Source: Candidatus Sumerlaeia bacterium (GTDB lineage: Bacteria; Sumerlaeota; Sumerlaeia; SLMS01). Taken from it: a stretch of 18,562 nt of DNA. A program made the position numbers and the translations under genes. Under the pieces are notes generated by a model. That model worked only from the letters and a program-made list of their open reading frames with translations, was not told the origin of the DNA and made no database searches. Of this stretch, positions 1 through 18,158 are shown piece by piece. The stretch's first letter is position 1. Each line of letters opens with the position of its first letter. The DNA lies in NCBI GenBank assembly GCA_038208905.1, contig JBBQYG010000070.1, forward strand, positions 1 through 18,562, in the 5' to 3' direction.

Positions 1-135
1 GGCGACGGCGGCAAAGCCCTTCGCCAGAAACAGGCGCGCCGCCGCCGTGACGATGGCTTCGCGGGTGGCGGCGGGATTCCGGCGGCGGCGAAAATCGGCA
101 AGGGAACGCTTGGCGGCGGGAGCGGGGGTGGGCAT
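1..135 (-). CDS. TetR/AcrR-family transcriptional regulator, N-terminal part (runs off the left edge; not in the supplied ORF track)
   Basis: Manual translation from ATG at 135: MPTPAPAAKRSLADFRRRRNPAATREAIVTAAARLFLAKGFAAVA. The stretch 'TREAIVTAAARLFLAKGF' matches TetR helix 1 (TRxxIlxAAxxLFxxxGF). GGAG lies 9 nt upstream of the ATG. Confidence 0.88.
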   Translation of the reverse strand, partial: MPTPAPAAKRSLADFRRRRNPAATREAIVTAAARLFLAKGFAAVA

Positions 136-189
136 CGGGAGCGGCTCCAGAGCATGAATTAGTACGATCTTCTTCGGAACCTCCACAGA

Positions 190-207
190 GTCGACCGATC
201 AGTCAAC
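190..207. promoter_or_regulatory. Imperfect palindrome, putative TetR-type operator overlapping a -35-like TTGACT on the minus strand
   Basis: GTCGACCGATCAGTCAAC matches its reverse complement at 14/18 positions. It lies 55 nt upstream of the TetR start in the divergent intergenic region. Confidence 0.5.
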
Positions 208-379
208 AGGAAACGCAAGAAATTGAGAAAAGCTGGGGGGAACTGGGCCCGGATCGCCACGATACCGCCATGCCGACCTAATCTCCCATCTCCGGCAATT
301 CTGGTTGGCGGGGGGGGCGATACGGTCCACCGTACCACGCTGACTTTTCCCACTTTGCGTTCATTCCTGGAGGCTCCCC

Positions 380-1603
380 ATGCTCACCACACCCAACCGC
401 CGCATCGGCGACGTCCTCCGCCAGTGCGGCATGGTTACGGAGGAGCAGTTGGATCAGGCCCACGCCCTCGCGTCGCGCGAGGGCGTCCGCATCGGCGAGG
501 CGTTGGTCCTTATGGGTGTGCTCGACCGCGACCGGCTGACTTGGGCGCTGGGGGTCCAGTTCGATCTCTCCTATGTGGATCTGGACATGGAGATGATCGA
601 TTGGGCTTTCGTGCGGCGCTTTCGCCTCGCGCGTCTTCGCGAACTGCGGTTGCTGCCGATGTCCTTTGCGGGCGGGGTGGTGCATGCGGTGGTGGCCGAT
701 CCCACGCGCGCGCAGCTCGACGTGGTGGCGGAGGAGCTTTTCCCCGGACGCGAACTCGTGGTCCAGCTCGCAGAGGAGGGCGAAATCCTAGCCATGCTCG
801 ACGAGGCCAAGCGTCAGGAACAGACCCCGCGCGACGCATTTGCCCCGATGCCCGGAACCGACGACGCGGCCGCTTGGCTGGCCGCGTGTATAGACACGCT
901 GGGCGGGGGAGACGCCCGCAATTCCCTCGTGGTTCTTCAGCAGGATCCCTATCGTCAGGATCGATTTCGCGTCGTGCGGCCCGCCATCGATCCTCCCGCC
1001 GCGCCCATCGGCGAGGCGCTGATTGGCGCAATCATCGAATTGATCCCTTCGCGATTCACCGAGGAGTTCCCAATCCCAGGCGGCTTCGCCGGACTTTGCC
1101 CGGAGATGCTCGACGAAGAGGGCGGAATCCAGCGCGGAGCCGTCCGCGTCACCTCGCTGCACGGTACGGCGGGGCGGACGATCATAATCGAGCGGGTCCC
1201 CGACGCGCCCCGCGAGGCAAGAGCGATGCTTGGCGTCGTCCTGCGCACGGCGGACACGGTCCGCTCAAAGGCATCGCTGGCCCGGCTGCGCGGGGTATTC
1301 TTCGAGGCGCACTCGGATTTTCTTCTGTGCCGCGGGGCTCGTCAGTTTTCCTCTCCGGATCCAGCGCTGCGTGCTGCGATTTGCCGCCGCGTTGCGCGCG
1401 CCCTCGCCGCGCCGTGGATTGTGTGGGAGGCGCTGACGCCCGCCGAGGCCGATCTCGCGCCGCTGGGCATCGTGGATCGACTCGTGGTTGTCCGGCATGA
1501 TCCCCATGCCGCCGGGGACTTGCTGGAACCACACGGCGAATGCCCCGCCGCCACGCTGGATGAACTTGCGGCAGCGCTCGGGGAGGACTCCCATGTACGT
1601 TGA
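380..1603 (+). CDS. MshEN (GspE/PilB N-terminal) domain protein with a degenerate PilB-like ATPase region, 407 aa
   Basis: Tandem MshEN motifs RIGDVLRQCGMVTEEQLDQAHALA-SREGV-RIGEALVLMGVLDRDRLTWALGVQ, followed by GspE_N-like 'LLP...VVADP'. No GxxGxGKT/S motif. SD GGAGG at 369-373. The stop overlaps the pilT start. Confidence 0.85.
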   Translation: MLTTPNRRIGDVLRQCGMVTEEQLDQAHALASREGVRIGEALVLMGVLDRDRLTWALGVQFDLSYVDLDMEMIDWAFVRRFRLARLRELRLLPMSFAGGVVHAVVADPTRAQLDVVAEELFPGRELVVQLAEEGEILAMLDEAKRQEQTPRDAFAPMPGTDDAAAWLAACIDTLGGGDARNSLVVLQQDPYRQDRFRVVRPAIDPPAAPIGEALIGAIIELIPSRFTEEFPIPGGFAGLCPEMLDEEGGIQRGAVRVTSLHGTAGRTIIIERVPDAPREARAMLGVVLRTADTVRSKASLARLRGVFFEAHSDFLLCRGARQFSSPDPALRAAICRRVARALAAPWIVWEALTPAEADLAPLGIVDRLVVVRHDPHAAGDLLEPHGECPAATLDELAAALGEDSHVR

Positions 1604-2906
1604 TCCCTTCAAGTCCAACGTCATCGACCTTCCAGAGGAGAAGGACCTCGCGTCGATCCTCCTGCGCGCCGTGGAGCTCGGCGTCTCTGATATACATCTA
1701 TCCGCTGGCGACCCGCCGATGTTTCGCCTGCACGGGTCCATCACGCCAACGAACATGGAGAAGCTCGACCGCGAGTCGCTGCACAACATGCTCTATGACT
1801 TGCTCGACGATTATCAGCGCAAAACCCTGGAGCGGGACAAGGAGCTCGACTTCGCGCTACAATTCGGCAAGCTCGCCCGCTTCCGCGTGAACTGCTTCTA
1901 CAACCAGCGCGGAGAAGGCGCCGTCTTCCGGGTGATTCCCTCCGTCATCAAGAGCTTCGACGAGCTGGGCCTTCCTCCGATTCTCAAGACCATCGCCGAA
2001 AAGCCGCGCGGCATGGTGCTCGTCACGGGACCCACGGGCTCCGGCAAGACGACGACGCTGGCCACGATGGTGGACTACGTGAACAACACGCGCGAGGACC
2101 ACATCCTCACCATCGAGGACCCCATCGAGTTCGTCCACCAGCACAAGAAGTGCATCGTGAACCAGCGTGAGGTCGGCCCCAATACCAAGAGCTTCTCCAA
2201 CGCGCTGCGCGCCGCGCTCCGCGAAGACCCCGACGTGATTCTGGTGGGCGAGATGCGCGACCTCGAAACGATCCAGCTCGCCCTCACCGCGGCGGAAACC
2301 GGCCACCTCGTCTTCGGCACCTTGCACACGCAGTCCGCGCCCAAGACCTGCGACCGCATCATCGACGTGTTTCCGCCCCAGCAGCAGGGTCTCGTGCGGG
2401 CTATGTTCGCAGAGTCGTTTCAGGCGATTGTCTGCCAGGCGCTCCTCAAGAAGGCATCGGGGAAGGGCCGCGTCGCCGCGCTGGAGATCATGCTCGGCAC
2501 CGCGGCCACGAGATCGCTGATCCGCGAGGCCAAGACCCACCAGCTTCCCACGATCATCCAGACCAGCCAGAAGCACGGGATGCAGTCGCTCGACCAGAAC
2601 TTGAGGGACTTGCTCATGCGCGGCATCATCACCAAGAAGGACGCCATGACCAAGGCCAACAACCCCGAGTACATCGTCCGCAACGCCGAGGGCGATCTGG
2701 AGGAGAAGGCGGGAGTCCAACAGGCCGCGCCATTCAACCCCAATCGCCAGCGGGTCTCCACGGCGATGCCCACGATGCCGTGGGCGCCGCCCTCCGCCGC
2801 CGTGCCAAATGCGCCGGGTCCGCCGCCGCCTGCTGTTCCCGACTCCTCCGCATCGTCAACGTCGGTGCCCAAGCCGTCGTCATTCCCTTTCCTCCACAAG
2901 AAATAA
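1593..2906 (+). CDS. pilT: Type IV pilus retraction ATPase PilT, 437 aa
   Basis: SDIHL, Walker A GPTGSGKTTT, Asp box TIEDPIEF, LREDPDVILVGEMRD, His box GHLVFGTLH, AIRNLIRE-like ATRSLIRE. Start placed at ATG 1593 (SD GGAGG 1582-1586) rather than 1488. Confidence 0.95.
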   Translation: MYVDPFKSNVIDLPEEKDLASILLRAVELGVSDIHLSAGDPPMFRLHGSITPTNMEKLDRESLHNMLYDLLDDYQRKTLERDKELDFALQFGKLARFRVNCFYNQRGEGAVFRVIPSVIKSFDELGLPPILKTIAEKPRGMVLVTGPTGSGKTTTLATMVDYVNNTREDHILTIEDPIEFVHQHKKCIVNQREVGPNTKSFSNALRAALREDPDVILVGEMRDLETIQLALTAAETGHLVFGTLHTQSAPKTCDRIIDVFPPQQQGLVRAMFAESFQAIVCQALLKKASGKGRVAALEIMLGTAATRSLIREAKTHQLPTIIQTSQKHGMQSLDQNLRDLLMRGIITKKDAMTKANNPEYIVRNAEGDLEEKAGVQQAAPFNPNRQRVSTAMPTMPWAPPSAAVPNAPGPPPPAVPDSSASSTSVPKPSSFPFLHKK

Positions 2907-2924
2907 CCCGGGAGCCCCACCGCA

Positions 2925-4016
2925 ATGTCCCAAGCCCACAAGCCTCCCGTCCCCCTGCGCGACATGTTGCAGGCCATGATCACCCAGGATGCGTCCGACC
3001 TCTACCTCGCGGCAAAGGCGAAGCCCAAGTTCTCCCTTCAGGGAAACTTTGTGGACGCGGCGGAGGCGGAACTGACGGAGGAAGACACGTCATCCTATGC
3101 GCAGGAGCTAATGTCGCCCGACCAGAAGGAGGAGTTCCGCCGGGAGATGGAAGTGAACCTCGCCTTCGCCACCGGCGAGGAAGGGCGATTCCGCGTCAAT
3201 ATCTTCACCCAGCGCGGCTCCGTCGCGATCGTCATCCGCCGCATCAAGGTGACGATCCCAAAGCTGGAGGAACTCGGCCTGCCGCCGCTTCTCGGCGAAC
3301 TCATCATGCAGGACCGCGGACTCCTTCTGATGACGGGCGCCACGGGCTCGGGCAAGTCCACCACGCTGGCCGCGATGATCGACTACCGCAACGAACGACT
3401 GGGCGGCCACATCGTCACCATCGAGGACCCCATCGAGTTCGTCCACCCCAACAAGGTGGCCCTCGTCAACCAGCGCGAGGTCGGCATCGACACCAAGTCG
3501 TTCCACATCGCCCTCAAGAACACGCTGCGCCAGGCGCCCAAGATCATCTACATTGGCGAGATTCGCGACACCGACACGATGACCTTTGCGCTTCACGCCA
3601 GCGAGACCGGCCATCTGGTGCTGGGCACCCTCCACAGCAACAACGCCAACCAGACTCTGGAGCGCATCATGAACTTCTTCCCCCACGAGTACCATCCGCA
3701 GTTGCTGCTTCAGCTTTCGCTGAACCTGCGCGCTGTGCTCAGCCAGCGGCTCCTGCGCAAGATCGGCGGCGGGCGCGCCCCCGCGCTGGAGATCCTCCTC
3801 AACACGCCGTATATCGCCGAGCTCATCACCAAGGGCGACATCCAGGCCATCAAGGCCACCATGATGGCGTCAAAGGCGGAGGGCCTTCAGACCTTCGACC
3901 AGGACATCCACCGCCTGTGGAAGGCCAAGGTCGTGACCGAAGAAGAGGCGTTCCGATCCGCAGACAGCGCCAACAACCTGCGCCTGCGAATGCGCGGGAT
4001 CGGCATGGGGGATTGA
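2925..4016 (+). CDS. pilU: PilT/PilU-family retraction ATPase, PilU-like, 363 aa
   Basis: GATGSGKSTT, TIEDPIEF, LRQAPKIIYIGEIRD, GHLVLGTLHSNNANQTLERIMNFFP (the ANQxxxRIxNFFP pattern is PilU-typical). No AIRNLIRE motif. It follows pilT after an 18-nt gap, with GGAG upstream. Confidence 0.88.
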   Translation: MSQAHKPPVPLRDMLQAMITQDASDLYLAAKAKPKFSLQGNFVDAAEAELTEEDTSSYAQELMSPDQKEEFRREMEVNLAFATGEEGRFRVNIFTQRGSVAIVIRRIKVTIPKLEELGLPPLLGELIMQDRGLLLMTGATGSGKSTTLAAMIDYRNERLGGHIVTIEDPIEFVHPNKVALVNQREVGIDTKSFHIALKNTLRQAPKIIYIGEIRDTDTMTFALHASETGHLVLGTLHSNNANQTLERIMNFFPHEYHPQLLLQLSLNLRAVLSQRLLRKIGGGRAPALEILLNTPYIAELITKGDIQAIKATMMASKAEGLQTFDQDIHRLWKAKVVTEEEAFRSADSANNLRLRMRGIGMGD

Positions 4017-4029
4017 GTCGTTGTCGCCG

Positions 4030-4634
4030 CTATTGCGGCGGCGGCGTTTCGCGCGATCCCGTCAGGAAGTGCATCGAGGACTGGCCCACGGACTCGTAGA
4101 AGCTGCCGGAGCGGTCGCGGAATATCTCAAATGGCTCATTCGGCGACGCGATGAACGGCCTCAGCACCCATGCGAGCTGTGTTCCCACAAACGCATACAG
4201 GATCAGCCACGCAACACGCAGGTAGATCGGCGTGCTGGCACCGCGTCGTCTGGAGATACGGCTGAGCATCGACATGAGGAAGTCCAGGCTGCTGGCCCCC
4301 GCATAGACGAAGAAGACCACGTGGAGCAGCTTGATGAAGTGATAGCTCGTCGTCGTCAGCGAGAAGAAGAACGCCACCGTCGCGAGGCTGGCGATCAGCG
4401 TGGAGTCCATCGCCACCGCGCCCAGCATCGCGCAGCCCTACTGTAGAAATGACAGACGAGCGCCGGAGAAGGCGTTGGACACATAGATCGGCGGAAAGAC
4501 GATCACGAGCGTGAGGAGAAACAGCAGCGGCACCTTCCCCGCCGTGATCGGGATCAGGGCCAGCATCTGCCAAGTCTTGCCGGAAGCGCCTAGGCAACGG
4601 AGGACAGAACTGATTTGAGTGATTCACCAGCCAT
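4030..4634 (-). pseudogene. Disrupted integral membrane protein gene (family with KxPLLFLLTL...P..Y and WLILYAFVGxQLxWxLRPF motifs)
   Basis: The 4030..4428 ORF continues upstream in the same frame through a TAG at 4438-4440 into hydrophobic, protein-like sequence (LGASGKTWQMLALIPITAGKVPLLFLLTLVIVFPPIYVSNAFSGARLSFLQ*GCAML). An ATG at 4634 preceded by AAGGAGG opens only a 14-codon ORF in another frame. Confidence 0.7.
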
Positions 4635-4711
4635 CCCTTTCGATCCCCTCCTTCCAGCCGACTTGTTGACACGGGAAAGGATCGCCCGCACAGGAAACGT
4701 CCCCGCTTGGG

Positions 4712-5680
4712 CTACTTGCTGGCCGTCTTTCCTGACCGAAAGAAGAACACTTCGAACGGGAATTTGTAGTCTGGCACGGCGGGATCGAAAGGCTGCATCA
4801 GCGCGCGCAATTCCGCCATCGGGAGTTCAAGGAGCCGCGCGCGGTCGCGCTCGATCAATGCGCCCACGGCGGGCGTCAGCAGGTAGGGCTCAAAGCCCAG
4901 CGCAGCAGTCTCCTTGATGGCACGGTGGATGTCTTCGCGGTCCAGCACCATCGGGTGGAACTCGACAAAGAGATTCGCGACGCGGCCGGAGGCGATGGTC
5001 TGCGAGAGACCCTTGAGCACTTCCAGTTCGTGCCCCTCCACGTCGATCTTGATCAAGCGAATCGCGTCGAGGCCACGCGCCGCGAGGTCGCCGTCCAGCG
5101 GTACCGCCTGCACGATGTGATCGCCAGTGTCGGAAATGCGCGCCCATCCGGAGTTGGGTGCGTTGCCGGGGATGGATAGGCGCAGTTCCGCGTGGACCGA
5201 GGATGCAGCCACCGGACGGATGGTCCAATTGCCGTGCTTGCCGTGGAGCCGCGTGCCCTCAAGATCGAGCAAGTTGGCGGGATTGATTTCATAGAGCACC
5301 GAGGGAACCCGGCCACCCGTCGCCGCCGAGGCAACCACCGCGAAGTATCCCTTGTTGGCGCCCACATCGACAAAGGCGCCCGCGCCCTCGTTGACGGCGG
5401 CCGCGACAACGGCGGTTACCTCCGGCTCGAACGCCTCCCACAGGAAAATGCCCATCGAGATTCCCGTGTCGGCGTATTCGATCGCGAACGGCTCCTTCCG
5501 GAAGTTTCCCAGAAAGTGGGCGGGGGATCCGACAAGCCGATGCGCCATCCCAAACAGGAAGTGCCGCCCCCGGGGGAGCAACCTCACGACGCGCGCCGTC
5601 ACGCGGAGTAGGGCTCCCCGCCACCCCGCGACGATTGAGGAAGTGTCGATAGCTGCCGGGCTGCCTGCTTCGCTGTTCAT
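4712..5680 (-). CDS. FkbM-family SAM-dependent methyltransferase
   Basis: FVDVGANKGYFA (motif I), YEINP, LIKIDVEGHELEVLKG, LFVEFHP. The exact start codon is uncertain. Confidence 0.9.
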   Translation of the reverse strand: MNSEAGSPAAIDTSSIVAGWRGALLRVTARVVRLLPRGRHFLFGMAHRLVGSPAHFLGNFRKEPFAIEYADTGISMGIFLWEAFEPEVTAVVAAAVNEGAGAFVDVGANKGYFAVVASAATGGRVPSVLYEINPANLLDLEGTRLHGKHGNWTIRPVAASSVHAELRLSIPGNAPNSGWARISDTGDHIVQAVPLDGDLAARGLDAIRLIKIDVEGHELEVLKGLSQTIASGRVANLFVEFHPMVLDREDIHRAIKETAALGFEPYLLTPAVGALIERDRARLLELPMAELRALMQPFDPAVPDYKFPFEVFFFRSGKTASK

Positions 5681-5828
5681 CCCTTGCCTCCATTGGCCCG
5701 GGCATCCAAGGCCACGGCGATATAGCGGTCAACCAAGGATTCCCGGCGCTCAACAATCTCCTTTCCCACGCGTTGGAGTCGGATTTTCACTCGCGCTCAC
5801 GTTCGGAAAGGCGGAAGGAACTGCAATC

Positions 5829-6593
5829 ATGGGCGATACCCTGAGGGCGCGCGTTCGGCGTCGCGAGAAGATATTCGGAAGCTGGCTCAACCTTGGTTCC
5901 AGCATCACGGCGGAGATCGCCGCACATGCGGGCTTCGATTGGCTGCTGTTGGACGGCGAGCATGGCTTCAGCGACTACAACACGCTGCTGCACCAGTTGC
6001 AGGCCATCGGCGGCAGTCCCACCGCGCCCATCGTGCGCCTGCCCTGGAATGATCAGGCCTTCATGAAACGAGTGCTCGATCTGGGACCCGCCGGCATCAT
6101 GATCCCCATGGTGAACACGGCCGTCGAGGCCGAGGCGGCGGCGCGAGCCTTCCTCTATCCGCCCGATGGCACACGCGGGCTGGCAAAGCTAACGCGCTCC
6201 AGCGGCTACCTCGCTAACTTCCCCAGCTATTTCGCCACCGAATCCCGCGACTTGATCCTGATTTGCCAGATCGAAACGCCCGAGGCTGTCGCCAACATCG
6301 ACGCCATCGCAGCGGTCGAGCGCGTGGACGTGCTGTTTGTGGGGCCGACGGATCTCTCGGTGAATCTGGGGTTACTGGACAAGACAGAGGATCCGCGATT
6401 TCAGGACGCCCTGCGCAAGGTCGTCGATGCCGCCAAGAGCCACGGCAAGGCCGCGGGTGTCCTCACAACTTCCTCCGAAATCGCTCGCGACTACCTGAAC
6501 CTCGGCTTCACGTTCGTGGCCACCTCGTCGGACATGCTGGTGGCGACGCTCGGAATGCGCGCCGTGGCGAAGGAACTCAACGCGCTCCGCTGA
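5829..6593 (+). CDS. HpcH/HpaI-family class II aldolase (GarL/RhmA-like), 254 aa
   Basis: GFDWLLLDGEHG, IVRLPWN, LDLGPAGIMIPMV, YPPDGTRG, QIET, FVGPTDLS. Start placed at ATG 5829 (AAGGA at 5815-5819); the upstream extension to 5352 overlaps the methyltransferase antisense. Substrate cannot be determined from sequence. Confidence 0.92.
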   Translation: MGDTLRARVRRREKIFGSWLNLGSSITAEIAAHAGFDWLLLDGEHGFSDYNTLLHQLQAIGGSPTAPIVRLPWNDQAFMKRVLDLGPAGIMIPMVNTAVEAEAAARAFLYPPDGTRGLAKLTRSSGYLANFPSYFATESRDLILICQIETPEAVANIDAIAAVERVDVLFVGPTDLSVNLGLLDKTEDPRFQDALRKVVDAAKSHGKAAGVLTTSSEIARDYLNLGFTFVATSSDMLVATLGMRAVAKELNALR

Positions 6594-8027
6594 TCACAGC
6601 CGCCCCGGCACATAATCCCGATGCGCGTGAGGCCGTGGATACAGGCGCTCCATCTCTCCCGCCGCGAGGCGCTTCTGATACTCGCGCCACGTGATCTTGG
6701 GCATGTCGGTGCGGACTTCCTCGACCATCTCGATACAGTGGGAGACAGGGCAAACCAGGCTGCACAGGTTGCAACCCACGCACGTCTCCTCGTTCACCTT
6801 ATAGACATTCACTGTACCGCCGCCGAGGCCGGGAAGCGTGCGGACGCCTCCACTCTCCTCGAACTTCTTGCGCGAGCCATTCTCCAGCGTGGCCCCGTGG
6901 ACGGCGATAAACTCCGAGATCGGAGTTGGGAAGATGTCGATCGACTGGTGGGCGCCGTCCTCGCAGGCGATATAGCACAGGCCGCAGTGGATGCACTTAT
7001 CCTCGTCGATGCGCGCGATCACCTGATAGCTCATGTCCAGATCGTTCCAGTTTCCGATGCGCTGGACGCTGGCGCCGATGAAGTCGTCCAGCGAGGTGAA
7101 GCCCTTCTCGATCATCCACGTCTCCAGGCCGGAGAGCATCGTCTCCACAACGCGAAAGCCATAGTGCATCGCCGCCGTGCACACTTGGACGCTGCTGGAG
7201 CCTAGGAGCATGAACTCGACGCCGTCCTGCCATTGCTGAACACCGCCGATGCCGGATATCGGGATGGCGATCTCTGGATCGGCGGCGATGGACTGGACCA
7301 TGTTGAGCGCGATCGGCTTCACCGCCGGGCCGCAATAGCCGCCGTGGGATCCCCGCCCGTTGACGTGGGGGCGCGGATTGAAAGTGTCGAGATCGACGCC
7401 CACGATCGAGTTGATCGTGTTGATGAGCGACAGCCCGTCGGCGCCACCTCGCTTCGCAGCGCGACCCACGGGGCGAACGTCGGTGATGTTGGGCGTTAGC
7501 TTCACCAGAACCGGAGTCCGCGCCACTTCCTTCACCCACGTTGTGATCATCTCCGCATACTCGGGAACCTGCCCGACGGCGGAACCCATCCCGCGCTCGC
7601 TCATGCCGTGGGGACAGCCGAAGTTGAGCTCCAGGCCGTCGGAGCCAGCGTCCTCCGCGCGCTTCACGATGTCGTGCCACGCCTCGCGATTGCTCTCCAC
7701 CATCAGCGACGCGATCACCGCGTGCTTGGGAAACAGGCGCTTCACCTCGGTGATTTCGCGGAGGTTGTCCTCCAGCGGCCGATCGGTGATGAGTTCGATA
7801 TTGTTGAAGCCGATCATCTTGCGCCCGTCGTGATCGAGGGCTCCATAGCGCGACGACACGTTGACAATGGGGTCATGGGTGAGAGTCTTCCACACCGCCC
7901 CGCCCCAGCCCGCCTCGAAGGCGCGGCAGATCTGATAGCCCGTGTTGGTGGGCGGGCCACTGGCGAGCCAGAATGGATTCGGCGACTTGATCCCGCCAGT
8001 ATTGGAGGAAAGGTCGGGGCTCTTCAT
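6594..8027 (-). CDS. preA: Dihydropyrimidine dehydrogenase, FMN/Fe-S subunit
   Basis: NPFWLASGPPT, catalytic loop LELNFGCPHGMSERGMGSAVGQ, KLTPN, HGGYCGPAVKPIAL, and two ferredoxin motifs CIHCGLCYIAC and CVGCNLCSLVCP. Overlaps preT by 4 nt (ATGA). Confidence 0.95.
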   Translation of the reverse strand: MKSPDLSSNTGGIKSPNPFWLASGPPTNTGYQICRAFEAGWGGAVWKTLTHDPIVNVSSRYGALDHDGRKMIGFNNIELITDRPLEDNLREITEVKRLFPKHAVIASLMVESNREAWHDIVKRAEDAGSDGLELNFGCPHGMSERGMGSAVGQVPEYAEMITTWVKEVARTPVLVKLTPNITDVRPVGRAAKRGGADGLSLINTINSIVGVDLDTFNPRPHVNGRGSHGGYCGPAVKPIALNMVQSIAADPEIAIPISGIGGVQQWQDGVEFMLLGSSSVQVCTAAMHYGFRVVETMLSGLETWMIEKGFTSLDDFIGASVQRIGNWNDLDMSYQVIARIDEDKCIHCGLCYIACEDGAHQSIDIFPTPISEFIAVHGATLENGSRKKFEESGGVRTLPGLGGGTVNVYKVNEETCVGCNLCSLVCPVSHCIEMVEEVRTDMPKITWREYQKRLAAGEMERLYPRPHAHRDYVPGRL

Positions 8028-9373
8028 CGGGTTGATCCTTTTGCGGAGAGGTACTCGTCGATCGAGCGTGCCGCCAACTTGCCGTCTTGCACGGCGTTAA
8101 CGATTTCCTTCCCCTTGTGGGTGCAGTCACCGCCGGCAAATAGACCGGGCCGCGTGGTGGAGAACGTCTCGCGGTCAATCGCGACTCCAGCGGGGCCAAA
8201 CTTCACACCCTCGATGCTGGAAAGCAGTTCCGCGACGGGAGACTGCCCAAGGGCCTTGATCGCCATGTCGCAGGGAATCTCGAACTCGCTCCCCGCAATT
8301 GCTTCCAGCGTTGCCAGTCGGCCATTTCCCTCGGCGAGATGCGTGCGGACGAACCGCACCGCCGAGAGCCTGCCATCCGTTTCGACGAAGGAGACCGGCT
8401 GCGCGAACCACTCGAAGCGCACTCCATCGACCTTCCCGAGTTCGTACTCGTAGCTATACGCCGACTTCTCGCGCTCGGAACGTCTATACGCGATCGTCAC
8501 CTCCTCCGCGCCGAGCCGAACCGCCGCGGTCGAGGCGTCGATGGCGGTATTCCCGCAACCAATCACCACCACTTGCCTGCCCACCGGGCACCGATCCAGC
8601 GGCTTGCGGTGCATCTCGTAGATGAACTCCAGCGCCTCCCACACGCCGGGGATGTCCTCGCCCGGCAGGTCGAGCCGCTGCGTCTCGCCCAGGCCGATGG
8701 CAATGAACACCGCGTCATGGTCCGCGACCAGCTTCTTGAGCGACGCCGAATCCACGGGCGAGTTCAGGCGGAGATCGATCCCCATGTCCAGGATCGGCTC
8801 GATCTCCTGCAGGGAAAACTCTCGCGTAATCTTGTAGGCCGCGATGCCGAGCGTGTTGAGTCCGCCGGGAACATCCCGCGCCTCGAGCACGGTGACGGCG
8901 TGGCCGAGGCGACGAAGCTCGTGGGCACAGGATAGCCCAGCGGGGCCGCTCCCCACGATGGCAACGCGCTTGCCGCTGTCGGCGCCCGGCTCAAAGAAGC
9001 GCAGGTCGCGCTCCGCCGCATAGTCCGTGGCGTAGCGCTGCAGGCGCCCGATCTCGATGGGGGCGCCAGATCTAGCGCGATCGACGCAGGCGCCCTCGCA
9101 GAGCACCTCTGTCGGGCAGGCCCGGGCACAGGACCCGCCGAAGATGTTCTCCTCGAAGATCGTCTTGGCGGCGGCGCGCGGGTTGTCGTGAAGGATCTCC
9201 CGGATGAAGCGCGGCACGTCGATCCCCGTGGGGCACGCCCGCGTACATGGCGCGTCATAGCAGAACAGGCAGCCCGACGCCTCCACCACCGCCTCGTCAC
9301 GTGTATAGACGGGATGCAGGTCGGCGAAATTCGCCGCCAACTCCCCCGGCGCCAGCCTAGTCGTCTCAGTCAT
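8024..9373 (-). CDS. preT: Dihydropyrimidine dehydrogenase, FAD/NAD(P)H/Fe-S subunit (GltD-like)
   Basis: CLFCYDAPCTRACPTGID, CARACPTEVLCEGAC, VGSGPAGL, IGCGNTAID, FAGGD. Coupled to preA, with GAGGAG upstream. Confidence 0.92.
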   Translation of the reverse strand: MTETTRLAPGELAANFADLHPVYTRDEAVVEASGCLFCYDAPCTRACPTGIDVPRFIREILHDNPRAAAKTIFEENIFGGSCARACPTEVLCEGACVDRARSGAPIEIGRLQRYATDYAAERDLRFFEPGADSGKRVAIVGSGPAGLSCAHELRRLGHAVTVLEARDVPGGLNTLGIAAYKITREFSLQEIEPILDMGIDLRLNSPVDSASLKKLVADHDAVFIAIGLGETQRLDLPGEDIPGVWEALEFIYEMHRKPLDRCPVGRQVVVIGCGNTAIDASTAAVRLGAEEVTIAYRRSEREKSAYSYEYELGKVDGVRFEWFAQPVSFVETDGRLSAVRFVRTHLAEGNGRLATLEAIAGSEFEIPCDMAIKALGQSPVAELLSSIEGVKFGPAGVAIDRETFSTTRPGLFAGGDCTHKGKEIVNAVQDGKLAARSIDEYLSAKGSTR

Positions 9374-9428
9374 CCGATCTCTCCTCGATTCGCACTGTCC
9401 TCAGCACGCCATTCACTATTCCCTTCTT

Positions 9429-10904
9429 TCAGCTCATCCAGTTCGAGCGATTGCGCTCGCTCCACTTGGTCGTGATCTTCTTGGACTTCGTCCAGAAGTC
9501 GAAGCTTCCGTGCCCGGTCAGGTCGCCCTCGCCATAGGAGCTGTCGTTCCAGCCGCCAAAGGGGAACGGCTCGCGCGGAACGGGAACGCCGATGTTGATG
9601 CCGATCATTCCGGCGGAGGCGCGCTCCGCGAAGTGCGTCGCCACTTCTCCCGAGGATGTATAGATCGCCGCCGCATTGCCATAGGGGTTTGCGTTCTCGA
9701 TGGCGATGGCCTCCTCCAGCGTCTTGCAGCGGATGATCGTCAGCGTCGGGCCGAAGATTTCCTCGCAGGCGACCGCGTGTTCCGGCTTCGCGTGGTCAAA
9801 CACGGTTGGCCCGATGTAGTTGCCGCCCGCGGGCGCGTCGTCGGCGATACCCTTGCGCCCGTCAACGACCAGCGTGGCGCCGTCGCTCGTGCAGCGTTCG
9901 ATGTAGCCCGCGATTCGGTCGCGCGCCCCGGGGCTGATGACGGACCCGATGTCGCGACCGGCCTTCATCGCGCGGAACTTCTCCTTGATCTTGTCAAGAA
10001 TCGCGTCCACATCGCCCACGGCGATGAGTACCGAGGCCGCCATGCAGCGCTGACCCGCGCAGCCCGTTGCGGACGCCACCACGTTGGCGGCGGTCATTTC
10101 GGGGTCCGCGTCGGGAACAACGACGAGGTGGTTCTTCGCGCCGCCGAGCGCCTTTACGCGCTTTCCGTGGGCACTGCCGCGCTCATACACCAGCTTGGCG
10201 ACCTTCGTGGAACCCACGAAGCCAATGGCCGAAATCGACGGATGGTCGCAGATCGCCTCCACAATCTCGCGGTCCCCGTTCACCACGGAAAAGAGCCCTG
10301 GAGGAAGCCCCGCCTGCTCGAACAGGCGCGCGAGTTCCACGGCGGAGAGCGGTGTCTGCTCCGATGGCTTGAGGATCACGGCATTGCCGCTCGCCAGCGC
10401 CACCGGTAGCATCCACAGCGGCACCATCAGCGGAAAATTGAAGGGCGTGATCGCCGCCACAACACCAAGGGGATAACGCAGCATCTTGCATTCGACACCG
10501 CGGCTGACCTCCATCACCGGCCCCGCCGCGATCTGTGGCAGGCTGGTCGCGAACTCCACGCACTCGATCGCGCGGAGCAATTCGCCGCGCGCCTCGCCAG
10601 TGGTCTTGCCGTTCTCGCGGGTGATCAGCGCCGTTAGGTCGTCGGCGTTCTCCTCCATGATTGCCTTCAGGCGGAACATCACCTGAACGCGGTCCTTGAG
10701 TGCCAGGTGGCCCCATTCCTTCTGCGCCTTCACCCCGCGCGCGACCGCCGCGTCCAGATCGGCGGAGTTGGAGAGTGGAACATGGCCCAGCACCTCACCC
10801 GTCGATGGATCGGTAACCGACAAGCGGCGGCGGGAGGTGCTTTCGACCTCCTCCGCGCCGATCATGTTGGGGATCATCTTTTCTGTGGCTGCCTGTATAG
10901 ACAT
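9429..10904 (-). CDS. mmsA: CoA-acylating (methyl)malonate-semialdehyde dehydrogenase
   Basis: ITPFNFP, LKPSEQ, FVGST, GGAKNH, catalytic GQRCMA, EEIFGP, GINIGVPVP. Fits the pathway context. Confidence 0.92.
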   Translation of the reverse strand: MSIQAATEKMIPNMIGAEEVESTSRRRLSVTDPSTGEVLGHVPLSNSADLDAAVARGVKAQKEWGHLALKDRVQVMFRLKAIMEENADDLTALITRENGKTTGEARGELLRAIECVEFATSLPQIAAGPVMEVSRGVECKMLRYPLGVVAAITPFNFPLMVPLWMLPVALASGNAVILKPSEQTPLSAVELARLFEQAGLPPGLFSVVNGDREIVEAICDHPSISAIGFVGSTKVAKLVYERGSAHGKRVKALGGAKNHLVVVPDADPEMTAANVVASATGCAGQRCMAASVLIAVGDVDAILDKIKEKFRAMKAGRDIGSVISPGARDRIAGYIERCTSDGATLVVDGRKGIADDAPAGGNYIGPTVFDHAKPEHAVACEEIFGPTLTIIRCKTLEEAIAIENANPYGNAAAIYTSSGEVATHFAERASAGMIGINIGVPVPREPFPFGGWNDSSYGEGDLTGHGSFDFWTKSKKITTKWSERNRSNWMS

Positions 10905-10913
10905 GTGCGTCTC

Positions 10914-12329
10914 CTATCCTTTCGGTCCGGCGGTCTTGCGGGAGAGCCACTGTCCGCGGCCCTGCTTGCCCACCACCTTGTAGTCGTCCACAATCACCTC
11001 TCCGCGAGAGATCGTGGTGCGGGCGAATCCGGCCAGTTCCATTCCCTCGAACGGATTCCAGTCGGCATTGGTTTCCATTTTCTTCGGATCCACCTTGGTC
11101 TTGTTCCTGGGGTGGATGATCGCCAGGTCCGCGTCGAAGCCCTTCATGATGTGACCCTTCCGCCCTCCCAGCCCCATGATGCGCGCGGGATTGGAGCAAA
11201 GCTTCTGGACCATCTGCTCCAGCGTGATCTGCTTCTTGAGGACGCCCGTTGTATAGACAACGGGGAGCAGCGTCTCCAGTCCCGGCAGACCCATGGGAAT
11301 CTTGGTCCAGTCGCCCTTCCACATTGCCTTCTGCTTGCGGGTGAAGGTGCAGGTGTCGGTGGAGACCACTGAAACCTCGCCTCCGCGAAGGCCTTTCCAG
11401 AGACGCGAAATGTCTGGCTTCTTCTTCAACTGGGGGCAGCAGGCATACAGGTGGCCGTCGGGCTGCGCGAAAACCGAATCGTCGAGCACCAGATACTGGG
11501 CACAGGTTTCCGCGATGATCGGCACGCCGCGGCTCTGCGCGTCGCGGACGATTTCGGTTCCCTCCGCCGTGGACATGTGGACGATGTAGAGGTTGCCCCC
11601 CGTGACTTCGCACCACTTGGCCGCGCGCTGGATCGCCTCCGCCTCGATAAAGTTGGGCCGCGTGATCGCGTGCAGCACCGCCTTGTGCTTCTTCATCAGC
11701 GCCGGCGTGTGGTGGCGCGCGATCAACTCGTCCAAAACACGGGCGCTCTCCGCATGGACGAGCAGCATCGTGTCGTGCTCGCGCATTTGCTCGAGCGTGG
11801 AGAACAGTGCGCGGTCGTCGCTCTGCCAGCCTTCGCTCTCATAGATCATGAATTCCTTGAACGTGGAAAATCCGCGCTCCACCATGCCCGCAATCTGATC
11901 CTTGTGGGTGTCCCAGCCGGTGATGCAAATGTGGAACGTATAGTCGATGAGGGCCTTACCCTCGGCTTTCCTATGCCAGTTGTCGGCGGCCTGGGAAAGA
12001 GACTCGTACTTGCCGTCCTTCTTCTTGAAGGGAATTGCGAAGTCGATCAACGTGGTTACGCCGCCGCGGGCCGCCGCGCGAGTCCCGCTTACGTAGTCGT
12101 CCGACGACACCGTCCCGCAGAATGGCAACTCCAGGTGGACGTGAACATCCAGAACGCCGGGGATCACGATGTGCCCCTTTGCATCGACGACCTTCTTCGC
12201 CTCGGCGACGAGGGAGAGGCCCGGCTGCACCGCGGCGATCTTCTCGCCCCGGATTCCAATGTCGGCGCGGACGATCCCGCCGGGGGTCACCACATCGCCG
12301 TTCTTCACGATCATGTCGAAAGTTGCCAT
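10914..12329 (-). CDS. hydA: Dihydropyrimidinase (D-hydantoinase), 471 aa
   Basis: PGVLDVHVHL metal motif, GGVTT, FK (carbamylated Lys position), VHAE, YIVHMS, AETCAQYL, STD, G.DAD. Start placed at ATG 12329 (GGAG upstream) rather than 12443. Confidence 0.93.
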   Translation of the reverse strand: MATFDMIVKNGDVVTPGGIVRADIGIRGEKIAAVQPGLSLVAEAKKVVDAKGHIVIPGVLDVHVHLELPFCGTVSSDDYVSGTRAAARGGVTTLIDFAIPFKKKDGKYESLSQAADNWHRKAEGKALIDYTFHICITGWDTHKDQIAGMVERGFSTFKEFMIYESEGWQSDDRALFSTLEQMREHDTMLLVHAESARVLDELIARHHTPALMKKHKAVLHAITRPNFIEAEAIQRAAKWCEVTGGNLYIVHMSTAEGTEIVRDAQSRGVPIIAETCAQYLVLDDSVFAQPDGHLYACCPQLKKKPDISRLWKGLRGGEVSVVSTDTCTFTRKQKAMWKGDWTKIPMGLPGLETLLPVVYTTGVLKKQITLEQMVQKLCSNPARIMGLGGRKGHIMKGFDADLAIIHPRNKTKVDPKKMETNADWNPFEGMELAGFARTTISRGEVIVDDYKVVGKQGRGQWLSRKTAGPKG

Positions 12330-12342
12330 GCAAGTTCTCCGG

Positions 12343-13698
12343 TTAGTTGATGTCCGAAAGGACCTGGTCCATCGCGGCCAGGGTAAATTCCACGTCGGCC
12401 TTCGTGACGCAAAGGGGAGGCTTGATGCGAAGCACGTTTCCAAAGAGGCCGCCCTTGCCGACCAGAATCCCGTGCTCCTTGAGACCCTCGTGCAGCGCCG
12501 CCGTCTGTTCCCGGCCGGGCTCCTTGGTTGTGCGATCCTTCACCAACTCCATCCCCAGCATCAATCCCATGCCGCGGACGTCCCCGATGACCTGGTGCTT
12601 CTTCTGGAGCTTCTCCATGCCCTGCTTGAACTGGGCGCCAACAACGCGCGCGTTCTGCTGCAGTCCATCTTCCTCGATCACTTCGAGCACGGCAAGACCC
12701 GCCGCAGTGCTGACCGGATTTCCGCCGAAGGTGTTCACGTGGAGGCGCTGGCGCAGCGTCTCGGCGATCTCCTTGCGCGTGACCACGGCGGCGATGGGCG
12801 CGCCGTTGCCAAGGCTCTTGGCCATCGTCACGATGTCGGGGAGCACGTCGAAATTCTGGAATCCCCAATAGTGCTCGCCCGTGCGGCCGAATCCGGTCTG
12901 AACTTCGTCGGCAATGCACAGACCGCCTTTCTCGCGAATCGCCTCGTAGGCCAGCTTTAGATACTCCTTCGAACCGTAGGTCGTTCCGCCAACGCCTTGA
13001 ATCGGCTCCGCGATGAAGGCGGCAACCTTCCCCGGCGTGGAATAGAGGAGTGCCTCCTTCATCTCGTCCACGCTCTTGCGCGCGATCTCCGATGGAGTGC
13101 CGGAGTAGAGGCTCCGATACGGATCGGGGTTCGCCACGTGATGGATCTGATCCGTCGGCGCGGCGGTGTACTTCCAAGTGTGATGCGAGGTCAGCGCAAA
13201 CGTGATTCCCGACGCGCCGTGATAGCAATTGCGCAGCGCGATCACGTCGCGATTCCCCGTGAACAACCGCGCCATCAGAATCGCAAGGTCGTTGGCCTCG
13301 CTCCCGCTGTTGGTGAAGTAGGCAACCTCCAGCCCCGCCGGGAGCTTGGAAGCCAGCTTCTTGGCCAGCTCCGTCACGTTGGGATTCATATAGATCGTGG
13401 TCGTGTGCTGCAGGCGGCCCACCTGATCCTGAACGCGCTTGGCAATCTTGGGATGGCAGTGGCCGCATGAGACGCTGACGATTCCCGCGAAGAGGTCCAG
13501 ATAGCGGCGCCCCGTCTCGTCGAAGAGGTACTGCATGTGCCCGTCCACCAGCAGCAGCGGGTTCTTGTAGTAGGTGATCAGCCCCGGACTCAGGTAGCGC
13601 TGGCGGTCGGCGAGGACCTGCTCGCGCGACGGCCCCATATAGGGCTGTGGGGTAAAGGAACACGGGGGCATCTGGGACGAAGCGGTTGCTGCGGACAT
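12343..13698 (-). CDS. Class III PLP aminotransferase, AGXT2/PYD4-like; probable beta-alanine/beta-aminoisobutyrate:pyruvate aminotransferase
   Basis: YLDLFAGIVSVSCGHCHP, TNSGSEAND, YHG, AEPIQGVGG, ADEVQTGFGRTG, DIVTMAKSLGNG (PLP Lys), NTFGGNP. The substrate is inferred from operon context. Confidence 0.88.
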   Translation of the reverse strand: MSAATASSQMPPCSFTPQPYMGPSREQVLADRQRYLSPGLITYYKNPLLLVDGHMQYLFDETGRRYLDLFAGIVSVSCGHCHPKIAKRVQDQVGRLQHTTTIYMNPNVTELAKKLASKLPAGLEVAYFTNSGSEANDLAILMARLFTGNRDVIALRNCYHGASGITFALTSHHTWKYTAAPTDQIHHVANPDPYRSLYSGTPSEIARKSVDEMKEALLYSTPGKVAAFIAEPIQGVGGTTYGSKEYLKLAYEAIREKGGLCIADEVQTGFGRTGEHYWGFQNFDVLPDIVTMAKSLGNGAPIAAVVTRKEIAETLRQRLHVNTFGGNPVSTAAGLAVLEVIEEDGLQQNARVVGAQFKQGMEKLQKKHQVIGDVRGMGLMLGMELVKDRTTKEPGREQTAALHEGLKEHGILVGKGGLFGNVLRIKPPLCVTKADVEFTLAAMDQVLSDIN

Positions 13699-13702
13699 GA
13701 GG

Positions 13703-15244
13703 TCATTCCCTTTCGATGATGGGATCGGCGAATTGTGGCGAGTTACCGGAAGCAGGGCTGGGCACCGGCGGAAAGATGACGTTCAATGCCTGGTAGACTG
13801 CCCCCGCGACGACAAGGCCCACAAACCAGGCGTATGTGTAGACGGCTTCGAAGAACGGATGGGCGTCGAAGCGCAGCGTGCCCGTCGCGTCCGCGCCCAG
13901 CGCCTTTTCCGCGAAGCCCGGCACGTTGGGGATGATACCAAGCGCCAGCGCCGCGAGCGCGCGAGGATTGAAGCCGCCGAGGTAGCGATATCGCCCTTCC
14001 CGCCGGTAAAGATCCTCCACGTTCAACTCCGTTCGACGGATCGCATAGTAGTCTACCAGCATGATGCCGGCGATGCTCCCCAGCAGTGCGCTGTATCCGA
14101 TCAGCCATGTGAAGATGTAACCGCCAAGATCGGAAACCAGCCGCCAGGGCATGATCAGGATACCAATCACGCCCGCGATCAACCCGCCCGTGCGAAAGCT
14201 GATCAGGCTGGGGCTCAGGCTGGAGAAGTCGTTGGCGGGGGAGACGATATTCGCCGCGATGTTGGTGGAAAGCGTGGCCACCGAAAGCGCGAACAGCGCC
14301 ACGATTGTCACGATCGCATTGTCAAACTTGGAAAGCAGTACCACCGGGTCCCAGATGGCCTCGCCGAAAATGACTACTGTGGCGCAGGTGACCGCGATGC
14401 CAATGAAACTGAAGAGCGCCATGGTCGTGGGAAGGCCGATCAACTGGCCCAGGGCCTGATCTCTCTGGCTCCGCGCATAGCGTGTGAAGTCGGGAATATT
14501 CAGCGAGAGCGTCGCCCAGAAGCCCACCATCGCCGTCAGGTTGGGCCAGAACACCGCCCAGAAATTGAACCCGCCGGATTGCGCGCCACGGACTTGGGCG
14601 ATGACCGATGGCTCGAAGATATTCCCGAAGCCCCCTGCCTTATTGGCGGCCCAGAACAGCAGCACCAGTCCCGCGATGATGAGAAACGGCGCGGCGAGGT
14701 TTTCCATCCACTTGATCGAGTCGATCCCCGCAACGATGATCGCCATGTTGATCGCCCAGAACAGAAGGAAGCACGAGGCCTGCCCCAGCGTCAGCCCCAG
14801 CAGGCTCCCCGATCCGACAGCGGCGGCCTCGAAGCCAAACATCACCGCGAAGAGCGTATAGATCGCCGCGCCGCCAATCCACGTCTGGATGCCGAACCAT
14901 CCGCAGGCCACCATCGCCCGCATCAGCGCCGGAATGTTGGAGCCATACACTCCAAACGACGCGCGCAGCAGCACCGGAAACGGGATGCCGTGCTTCGTCC
15001 CCGCGTGGGCGTTCAGCACCATTGGAATCAGAACAACCAGATTCGCCAGGCCGATCGTCAACAGCGCCTGGCCCACCGTCATCCCCTGGGTGATCAGCCC
15101 CGACGCCAGCATATACGTGGGAATGCAGACTGCCATCCCCACCCACAGGGCGGCGAAATTCCACAGCGTCCACGTGCGCGCGGATTGGTCCACCGGCGCC
15201 AAGTCCTCGTTGTACAGCAGGATGTCGTGTCGCTCGGAACTCAT
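13703..15244 (-). CDS. NCS1-family nucleobase:cation symporter (probably uracil/dihydropyrimidine/hydantoin)
   Basis: NEDLAP, WVGMAVCIPTY, HGIPFPVLLRASFG, WFGIQTWIGG, WATLSLNIPDFTRYA, NIAANIVSPANDF, and many hydrophobic helices. Confidence 0.93.
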   Translation of the reverse strand: MSSERHDILLYNEDLAPVDQSARTWTLWNFAALWVGMAVCIPTYMLASGLITQGMTVGQALLTIGLANLVVLIPMVLNAHAGTKHGIPFPVLLRASFGVYGSNIPALMRAMVACGWFGIQTWIGGAAIYTLFAVMFGFEAAAVGSGSLLGLTLGQASCFLLFWAINMAIIVAGIDSIKWMENLAAPFLIIAGLVLLFWAANKAGGFGNIFEPSVIAQVRGAQSGGFNFWAVFWPNLTAMVGFWATLSLNIPDFTRYARSQRDQALGQLIGLPTTMALFSFIGIAVTCATVVIFGEAIWDPVVLLSKFDNAIVTIVALFALSVATLSTNIAANIVSPANDFSSLSPSLISFRTGGLIAGVIGILIMPWRLVSDLGGYIFTWLIGYSALLGSIAGIMLVDYYAIRRTELNVEDLYRREGRYRYLGGFNPRALAALALGIIPNVPGFAEKALGADATGTLRFDAHPFFEAVYTYAWFVGLVVAGAVYQALNVIFPPVPSPASGNSPQFADPIIERE

Positions 15245-15248
15245 TGGA

Positions 15249-16115
15249 TCAGGGCTTCACCAGCACGTCGTAAGTTTCCGGCCTGCGGTCGCGATAGAAT
15301 TGCCAGACGTTGCGCACTTCCCGGATCAGGTCGAAGTCGAGGTCCGCCACAACCACATCGTCCTTGTCGCGGCAAGCTTCCGCAAGCACCTGTCCGCGCG
15401 GGTTTGCGAAGTACGAAGTGCCATAGAACTCGCCCATGTTCCACGGCGCCTCGATGCCGGGGCGGTTGATCGCCCCCACAAAGTAGATGTTGTTCGCGGC
15501 CGCGGCGGGCTGCTCCAGCTTCCACAGGTACTCGCTCAGTCCCGCAACCGTTGCCGAGGGATTGAACACCAGCTCCGCGCCGTTAAGGCCGAAGGCGCGC
15601 CAACCCTCGGGAAAGTGGCGGTCGTAGCAGATATACACGCCGATGCGGCCAACCTTCGTCTCGAACACCGGATAGCCCAGATTCCCCGGCTTGAAGTAGA
15701 ACTTCTCCCAGAAACCCGGCTCGCAATGGGGGATGTGGATCTTACGCATCTTGCCGAGGTATGTCCCGTCGGCGTCGATGACCGGCGCGGTGTTGTAGTA
15801 CACCCCGGTCATGTCTTCCTCGTAGATCGGCACCACGAGGACCATCTTGAGCTTCTTTGCCAGCTCCTGGAATATCTTCGTCGTCGGGCCGTCCGGCACG
15901 CGCTCGGTCAGGTCATACCACTTCTTGTTATGCTCGGCGCAGAAGTAGGGACCGTAGAAGATTTCCTGCAGGCAGGCAACTTGGGCGCCCTGGTCGGCGG
16001 CGGCCTTTACCTGCTCGACAGCCTTCTCGACCATAGCCTTCTTGATTATCCCAACATTCGTGGAGTCTGTGCAAAGCTTCGTTTGGATTACGGCTGCGCG
16101 GACGACTCGGCTCAT
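15249..16115 (-). CDS. Nitrilase-superfamily carbon-nitrogen hydrolase, probable beta-ureidopropionase (N-carbamoyl-beta-alanine amidohydrolase)
   Basis: Glu-Lys-Cys triad in LQEIF, RKIHIP and ICYDRHFPE, plus FWEKFYFKPGNLGYPVF. First gene of the pyrimidine operon. Confidence 0.87.
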   Translation of the reverse strand: MSRVVRAAVIQTKLCTDSTNVGIIKKAMVEKAVEQVKAAADQGAQVACLQEIFYGPYFCAEHNKKWYDLTERVPDGPTTKIFQELAKKLKMVLVVPIYEEDMTGVYYNTAPVIDADGTYLGKMRKIHIPHCEPGFWEKFYFKPGNLGYPVFETKVGRIGVYICYDRHFPEGWRAFGLNGAELVFNPSATVAGLSEYLWKLEQPAAAANNIYFVGAINRPGIEAPWNMGEFYGTSYFANPRGQVLAEACRDKDDVVVADLDFDLIREVRNVWQFYRDRRPETYDVLVKP

Positions 16116-16275
16116 TTCCCGGTCTCGCTTGAGGTGGTATTTATCCCGGCTTCAACCTATTAGAAGGGGACGCCCGCGCCTAAGCGGTCAACCGTTTTCG
16201 ACCGGGCAAGCGGTTCAGGCATCGCGGGGACACGTCGGTTGACTCGACCGCGTCGGCGCCGCTAGCTCCCGCGTC

Positions 16276-16713
16276 ATGCAATTGCTTCTGCCACTCCTGC
16301 TGCTCGGCGCCCTCGCCTGGATGATATGGTATCTCGGCGGCGGAAGCTTTGGCCGCGCGCAGACCCAAGCGTGGATCGACCACCTCCGCGCCATGCCGCG
16401 TCTATACGTCTTCCTCGACCGGAACCACGGCAAGTTCCGGGCGGCGATGCATTATGTGGAGTTCGGGGGGCTGTTCCTCGCGCTCTATTGGCTTCAGGAC
16501 GCGGCCATCGGCGGGGGAGAGTTCGCGTTCCGCGGGCTCCCTTCGGCAATAATCGCCGCAGCCTGCGCCGTGGCGGCGCTCCTCGACGAGATGCACCAGC
16601 TCAAAAGCGGCACGCGCCAGTTCCGCCGTGTCGATTTCCTCCACTCGTGCTGCGGCATCGCCATCGCCATGGCGCTTGTCTTCCTCCAGTCCGTGGCGCG
16701 GGAAATCGAATAG
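16276..16713 (+). CDS. VanZ-like membrane protein
   Basis: HYVEFGGL and LDEMHQ...R.....D....G patterns with several hydrophobic segments. Confidence 0.75.
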   Translation: MQLLLPLLLLGALAWMIWYLGGGSFGRAQTQAWIDHLRAMPRLYVFLDRNHGKFRAAMHYVEFGGLFLALYWLQDAAIGGGEFAFRGLPSAIIAAACAVAALLDEMHQLKSGTRQFRRVDFLHSCCGIAIAMALVFLQSVAREIE

Positions 16714-16798
16714 GCGCGCGGCGGGCGGTTTTCCCTCGCCTTCCCGGATTCGGATTCCCACGATCAGTTGCAGACAGAAAACCGGAGAGACCCAAGCC

Positions 16799-17542: not shown

Positions 17543-17625
17543 GCTGTTTGCCCTTGCCGAAGAAGCCGTTCGCGCCACACTGACCCATTGAGCCGCACAA
17601 ATCCAACCCCGTACAGGTACCGCCG

Positions 17626-17964
17626 ATGCTGAAGCCCAAGGAGCGGGAGGAACTGCGACGCTTGATCGTCGAGCAGATCGCCAACATGGAAGAAAGTATC
17701 CGTAGCCTTCAGGAAATCATGGTCCCCGTCTCCCCCGATGCCGCCATCGGGCGCATCAGCCGCATGGACTCCCTCGTGAATCAGGGCACCGCCGAGCTTG
17801 CACTGAACGACGCCCAGAAGCGCATCGGTCGCCTCCGCGACAAGCTCACCAAAATCGACGATCCAGATTTCGGCAAGTGCGCTGGCTGCGGGGAATGGAT
17901 CCCCATCGACCGCCTCCGCGCCGCCCCCGACAAGGGCGTGTGCATGGCGTGCATGAAAAAATAG
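17626..17964 (+). CDS. TraR/DksA-family C4 zinc-finger protein
   Basis: Coiled-coil N-terminus, IGRISRMDS, then FGKCAGCGEWIPIDRLRAAPDKGVCMAC (CxxC-x17-CxxC). Confidence 0.88.
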   Translation: MLKPKEREELRRLIVEQIANMEESIRSLQEIMVPVSPDAAIGRISRMDSLVNQGTAELALNDAQKRIGRLRDKLTKIDDPDFGKCAGCGEWIPIDRLRAAPDKGVCMACMKK

Positions 17965-18150: not shown

Positions 18151-18158
18151 GTCTCTTG

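Follow-up and report, generated by a model that had tools for sequence, protein, structure and literature searches.

A conserved PilB-like protein without a P-loop is encoded directly before pilT in Candidatus Sumerlaeota

The best described relatives of the protein considered here are the ATPases PilB, MshE, PilF and GspE (for instance V. cholerae MshE, PDB ID 5HTL, T. thermophilus PilF and Geobacter PilB), in which an N1 (MshEN) domain precedes an N2 domain and an ATPase core. Section 6 of PMC11656802 gives the N1 domain as the feature that separates extension from retraction ATPases. A described parallel in gene order is G. sulfurreducens GSU0435 ('mshE'), a divergent PilB-like gene directly upstream of a pilT (pilT3); the available excerpts of PMC5065972 and PMC8557921 report it as 26% identical to PilB, conserved in three Geobacter species and handled as a putative ATPase, and those of PMC5065972 name PilT4 as the main motor and consider co-transcription unlikely. 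Here we analyse a gene at positions 380–1603 of the forward strand of contig JBBQYG010000070.1 from Candidatus Sumerlaeia bacterium (assembly GCA_038208905.1; positions 1–18,562, all 18,562 nucleotides being referred to as the window). Its 407-residue product resembles PilB, MshE, PilF and GspE in the N1–N2–core order, in the fold of N1, of N2 and, less clearly, of the core, and in a tandem motif of the type that binds cyclic di-GMP (c-di-GMP), but differs in that Walker A, the Walker B motif, the His box and the zinc site are all missing, the core is down to about 120 residues and the motif-I Gln is lost. Judged by sequence, profile alignment, structure model and fold search it is a putative pseudo-ATPase derived from PilB, a variant of the PilB/MshE type that would not count as an ATPase. 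Its long-term conservation, three-domain PilB fold, loss of the P-loop and coupling to pilT are the central observations of this work. Full-text searches, mostly without subscription papers, turned up no account of a PilB that is catalytically dead and paired with PilT; the pair is apparently undescribed in print, in agreement with an earlier reading of the sequence alone (the sequence-only reading), which knew of no example.

That reading also held that the protein stays colinear with PilB/GspE past the MshEN region. Sequence libraries recognise the first 150 residues only, as MshEN, and give no match to the C-terminal half, and a profile of residues 150–407 run against the 18,524 open reading frames (ORFs) of the genome recovered no PilB or PilT, which shows the extent of the drift. 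When residues 150–407 from 29 relatives were aligned profile to profile with a 13-sequence PilB alignment, the alignment ran colinearly through some 260 columns (score 41.2, E 1.4e-4, probability 53%), compared with 36.0 for PilT, 12.1 for the reversed profile and 18.4 for the best of 40 block shuffles. A bridging relative, P0030, matches Pfam T2SSE above cut-off at residues 203–420 and TIGR02538 over residues 11–407, where the protein studied here scores 30 against a cut-off of 676. The structure model, built from 93 sequences of which 13 are distant bridging ones, has a predicted local distance difference test (pLDDT) value of 92.3, and its top Foldseek matches are GspE and PilB (E 2–3e-9, with low template modelling scores).

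By domain, the fold evidence is uneven. The N2 domain (848–1207, residues 157–276) is of the PilB/GspE type, with Z 9.2–9.3 and a root mean square deviation (rmsd) of 3.6–3.7 over 100–106 residues to the extension ATPase structures 8dze, 4ksr and 1p9w. The shrunken core placed by the profile alignment at 1223–1579 (residues 282–400), without zinc site or C-terminal subdomain, is RecA-like when folded alone (pLDDT 71) but weakly so: Z is 7.4 to PilT, 7.2 to SulA and 7.1 to EpsE, tied with unrelated folds at 7.1–7.7, no Z reaches 8, and Foldseek gave no match at E≤0.001, the best being PilF at E 4.7e-3. SulA is a catalytically dead adaptor with a RecA fold; it resembles this core as a minimal RecA domain without a P-loop, but differs in ancestry and partner and serves as an analogy only. 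The fold check suggested for residues ~160–407 finds the N2 domain and is weak for the core alone, for which the profile alignment and the bridging relative P0030 give support; an unrelated C-terminal fold is rejected. A PilB fold of three domains, MshEN, N2 and a shrunken RecA-like core, is supported.

The motifs of catalysis were located from the profile alignment, with names and consensus taken from general knowledge and compared with the PilBs of the same genome. At the Walker A remnant (1232–1279, residues 285–300) the P-loop has collapsed: in the model, strand 285–290 meets helix 293–303 with two residues between, and GxxxxGK[ST] occurs in 0 of 80 close relatives. The Asp-box remnant (1301–1345, residues 308–322) is partly retained, with E309 in 37 and Q322 in 48 of the 80. 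At the Walker B remnant (1406–1432, residues 343–351) DPDxxxxGE is absent from P0001–P0077, and an acidic residue survives at the strand end (D/E at 350 in 75/80). No tetracysteine zinc site is present, and any CxxC past residue 150 is found in 4/80 relatives. The sequence-only reading had assigned segments to N2, Walker A, Asp box, Walker B and His box, all degenerate. These do fall on the corresponding motifs, with the Walker B register uncertain by 1–2 residues; RLVVVRH aligns with the His box, but its His is kept in 5/80 only, and some acidic and Asp-box residues survive. Orthologues with intact Walker motifs, which that reading named as evidence against it, did not appear. From its sequence the protein is predicted to be ATPase-dead, without P-loop, His box or zinc site.

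At E≤1e-30 the family profile finds the gene in 21 of 75 Ca. Sumerlaeota genomes; some 15 of the 21 had contributed to the profile, and 6 were new. All 19 complete genome copies that were translated have an open frame without stops, and a search of 1.84 billion representatives returned about 80 full-length clusters of this kind among the best 150 (clustered at 50% identity). Across the 19 copies the C-terminal half is 16–51% identical by domain, yet in frame. Synonymous sites were saturated in all 8 pairs compared, and therefore only the nonsynonymous rate (dN) by domain was used; in the closest genome pair it is 0.08 for MshEN, 0.65 for N2 and 0.45 for the core, so that the dead half evolves roughly 6–8 times faster than the head. 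Only 4 of 120 positions in N2 and 2 of 119 in the core reach 50% conservation. The intact frames in 19/19 copies, the 21/75 genomes and the ~80 clusters support a gene conserved over the long term rather than a dying copy. Fold, orthologues, gene order and the four intact pilB genes of the genome support the proposal of a retained dead PilB coupled to pilT and pilU, and the frameshift decay in relatives that would have spoken against it was not seen.

The coupling to pilT is visible in the window and recurs across the phylum. The ORF is uninterrupted, has a GGAGG ribosome-binding site at 369–373, 6 nt upstream of its start, and overlaps by 11 nt with pilT (1593–2906), whose ATG lies at 1593 and whose own GGAGG (1582–1586) falls within the 3′ end of the pseudo-ATPase gene. 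A second, pilU-like retraction ATPase (2925–4016) starts 18 nt past the pilT stop. All these features lie on the forward strand; both downstream products exceed the TIGR01420 cut-off of 319 (486 bits for PilT, 420 for the PilU-like protein) and retain Walker A and B intact. On the opposite strand an open frame begins at 135 and leaves the window (45 residues, without a Pfam match), so that the pseudo-ATPase gene appears to be the first of a pilT–pilU operon. Promoter and terminator scans gave matches no better than chance level. The unbroken ORF, its Shine–Dalgarno sequence, the overlap and the position at the head of the operon all agree with the sequence-only reading. PilTs of this subfamily have a long, proline-rich C-terminal tail (2700–2906 in the window), often ending in a Phe-Pro-Phe-like motif and basic residues.

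Of the 21 carriers, G041 has a fused form. Among the 20 unfused copies, 18 sit immediately upstream of pilT, that of G052 has the same arrangement split between two contig ends, and only that of G012 is solitary, so that pilT comes next in 19 of 20. Stop-to-start distances, attempted for 18 and obtained for 16, lie between −11 and +5 nt in 14 cases, and pilU follows in 11 of 15 listed regions. In G041 (contig C5, L041:1492–3285) an MshEN domain of this family, nested inside the family tree, is fused to the cognate PilT with its motifs intact, and at L094 a head-only gene is coupled to pilT. Conversely, the cognate PilT is present in 29 of the 75 genomes, 20 with the dead gene and 9 without; upstream of the lone copies is unrelated DNA in 8 cases and a contig end in 1. 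In a PilT tree of 43 rows (without G006, G017, G023 and the first G011 copy) one branch (99/96) unites the 22/22 PilTs that have a dead gene upstream with the fusion, 8 lone copies and two long-branched paralogues, and leaves the pilU-like product outside. Within it the lone copies cluster as a single nested group (91/91), consistent with loss of the dead gene on one occasion. An obligatory PilT subunit is ruled out by the at least 8 genomes in which PilT occurs without the gene; because the cognate PilT so occurs, the protein would be an accessory of PilT. In G006 the cognate pilT (L056:4500–4960) carries one in-frame stop about 50 codons in, an assembly error or a recent loss.

The part of the protein that stays well conserved is the head. 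The MshEN/N1 domain (380–823, residues 1–148; PF05157 E 1.7e-8, the Pfam match spanning residues 61–147) superposes on MshE 5htl with Z 18.4 and an rmsd of 1.7 over 139 residues. Within it, two 24-residue c-di-GMP-type motifs five residues apart (401–559, residues 8–60) score just above the NF053729 cut-off (38.2 bits against 38), with hydrophobic and Gly positions retained; motif II is complete, and motif I has no final Gln and, in this copy, a His for one Leu (position 28). G39 and the motif-II Gln, Q60, occur in 86/86 close relatives, and R/K37 and D107, the latter equivalent to Asp108 in MshEN's C-terminal subdomain, in 85/86. According to the excerpts of PMC5013675, changes of MshE Arg9, Asp12 or Gln32 shift affinity at most fivefold and hydrophobic changes cost more than tenfold; in those of PMC11731258, PilF GSPII-B retains binding, at 460–950 nM, when a single Gln is mutated, and GSPII-A, without the motif-I Gln and with a poor motif II, shows no binding. 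Since binding is thus retained in single-Gln mutants of MshE and PilF GSPII-B and missing in GSPII-A, c-di-GMP binding by the head is plausible, and would be weakest in this copy with its His28.

The family extends beyond the Sumerlaeota. Weaker matches include Walker-less PilB-like proteins of 450–590 residues, among them a Geobacteraceae/Desulfuromonadales family of 549 residues annotated 'PilB', which in 120/120 listed of 517 has no Walker A and retains both CxxC pairs that the protein studied here has lost. Geobacteraceae-named relatives group with the dead family, of which GSU0435 itself is a putative member. A published GSU0435 primer matched 79 metagenome stretches, but neither the gene nor another primer was present in any of them. 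In 201 genomes of a Nitrospirae-labelled phylum, the 19 best new loci comprise 15 intact PilBs and 4 Walker-less ones; pilT comes directly after each of these 4 and also after a fifth Walker-less locus. The same label on L094 is doubtful, as this locus scores 2e-56 and 200 genomes of that phylum reach 1e-33 at best. A quick tree of MshEN alone (36 dead proteins and the fusion against 31 intact PilBs) separates the dead proteins and the fusion with a Shimodaira–Hasegawa-like approximate likelihood ratio of 91, which is not conclusive, the set being thinned and its rows chosen by the family profile, a bias toward grouping. It left out a second dead PilB of the host genome, which fell among the intact ones, and P0144, which retains Walker A, has no Walker B Glu and fell among the dead proteins. 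Two unnamed MshEN clusters at 0.90 are commonest in Gemmatimonadota, a lead only. A series of losses runs from proteins of 550–580 residues with the zinc site, through those of 400–470 of the present type and of about 355 (L250–L252), to the head-only gene and the head–PilT fusion. A C-terminal peptide that would be compatible with overlap of a PilT-type start was found in 4/123 dead proteins and in 4/3,749 control ORFs. Three distant relatives (P0050, P0136, P0139) have an N-terminal response-regulator receiver domain, and at L259:2136–4079 (G207) a pilB is split over three frames, a pseudogene or assembly error.

Taken together, we consider it a fair working account, held with middling confidence, that the pilB of an old pilB–pilT pair gave rise to the gene, which lost ATP binding and was kept as a non-catalytic PilT accessory supplying a c-di-GMP-sensing or docking N-domain. 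The protein would be made in step with PilT and would lend it, in trans, an MshEN domain, which is normally missing from retraction motors. Its head would probably, perhaps weakly, bind c-di-GMP and/or dock on the pilus platform of the inner membrane, with the dead half as its tether to PilT, gating the recruitment or activity of the retraction motor. PilZ and FimX, described in part of PMC11656802 as PilB cofactors, are likewise non-catalytic or degenerate accessories linking c-di-GMP to a pilus motor, but have unrelated folds and act on the extension motor. In favour of the account stand the position before pilT with its close spacing, the G041 fusion and the L094 head-only gene, the five Walker-less loci of a second phylum, the single branch of the partner PilTs, the near-invariant head residues, the small effect of Gln32 changes in MshE and the GGDEF, PilM, PilC and secretin genes of the host genome. 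Several points weigh against it. The dead half is poorly conserved while PilT, compared among unfused partners of the class, stays 63–76% identical, an unexpected contrast if the two share a tight interface. At least 8 genomes have this PilT and lack the dead gene, and G012 shows the reverse. Intact pilB also often precedes pilT (L253), and the gene order may be partly inherited. The motif-I Gln, present in 30/38 distant dead proteins and 19/25 intact PilBs, occurs in 0/86 close relatives (Ala, Ser or Gly instead), R8 in 34/86 only, and this copy carries the His at 28. Finally, by the excerpts of PMC5065972, co-transcription of GSU0435 with pilT3 could not be demonstrated, and PilT3 was active alone in P. 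aeruginosa.

The sequence-only reading had offered an adaptor, a brake or a competitor, and the evidence favours a PilT accessory with the MshEN head as its putative working part. A brake on extension, in which the dead PilB takes the platform docking site of PilB or poisons its rings so that the co-expressed PilT and PilU win, needs no contact with PilT and would explain why all three PilB domains are kept and why G012 retains the gene alone; four intact PilBs are there to compete with, and N1 of GspE binds GspL (PDB titles 4pht, 2bh1). We nevertheless think it rather unlikely, as the head is fused to PilT in G041, the ring-forming surfaces are barely conserved and the gene is adjacent to neither intact pilB nor pilC in the 15 listed regions (pilC judged from ORF starts by eye). 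That the head alone matters, as a docking handle or c-di-GMP sink, with the dead half a folded vestige or spacer being lost, is likewise improbable: the series of losses does end in a head-only gene and a head–PilT fusion, and few N2 and core positions are conserved, but the dead half stays in frame in every translated copy and is modelled with confidence (pLDDT 92), and dN is below the saturated synonymous rate in the closest pair.

Much further down stands a rebuilt site that still binds nucleotide or Mg, with slow activity. The acid kept in 75/80 relatives at the end of the Walker B strand and the Asp-box Glu and Gln kept in about half speak for it, but with no GxxxxGK[ST] in the 80 close relatives or the 120 listed Geobacteraceae-type ones, and a loop of two residues in the model, we regard it as very improbable. 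A decaying pilB pseudogene is scarcely credible. Third-position GC content is lower in the C-terminal half (0.73) than in pilT (0.87), in keeping with decay, but open frames of like length in 21 genomes and ~80 clusters, with a strongly conserved head, refute it.

The host genome encodes four MshEN-PilB genes with intact motifs, separate from the dead copy, which answers the earlier suggestion that a separate intact pilB be confirmed; it also encodes ten PilT/PilU-like genes, PilM, PilC and secretin genes and four GGDEF genes. Its second Walker-less PilB-like gene (L222, G000:C4:6246–7856), with MshEN and both CxxC pairs, overlaps a RadC-family gene, groups with intact PilBs on a long branch and is probably of separate origin from the pilT-linked family. 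Elsewhere, another pilT is followed by a gene for a 234-residue protein that combines MshEN with a hydrophobic tail, probably bound to the membrane (G000:C80:6360–8474), and a GspE-like ATPase with intact motifs is preceded at its N-terminus by a long unrelated region that includes cysteine pairs and a hydrophobic stretch (G000:C201:1846–4482). The window also holds, on the reverse strand at 6594–16115, an ordinary seven-gene cluster resembling reductive pyrimidine breakdown (carbon–nitrogen hydrolase, nucleobase permease, class III aminotransferase, amidohydrolase, aldehyde dehydrogenase and two dihydropyrimidine-dehydrogenase-type subunits).

The recruitment and switching of retraction motors are far less understood than the control of PilB. 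The N1 domain is held, in the part of PMC11656802 cited above, to mark extension motors only; a dead PilB whose gene accompanies a PilT subfamily, and whose head was fused to it in one case, suggests a way in which retraction may be regulated. In the excerpts of PMC8557921 GSU0435 is among the candidate replacements for PilB, a role closed to a Walker-less protein, and if GSU0435 belongs to the dead family the idea can be tested in a genetically tractable strain. More broadly, we put forward tentatively, and as something we doubt more than we believe, that an old, multi-phylum family of pseudo-ATPases serves as a detachable N1 domain for one PilT subfamily, which would place retraction under direct c-di-GMP control, and that many 'pilB' or 'mshE' genes before pilT, GSU0435 included, may be regulators rather than motors.
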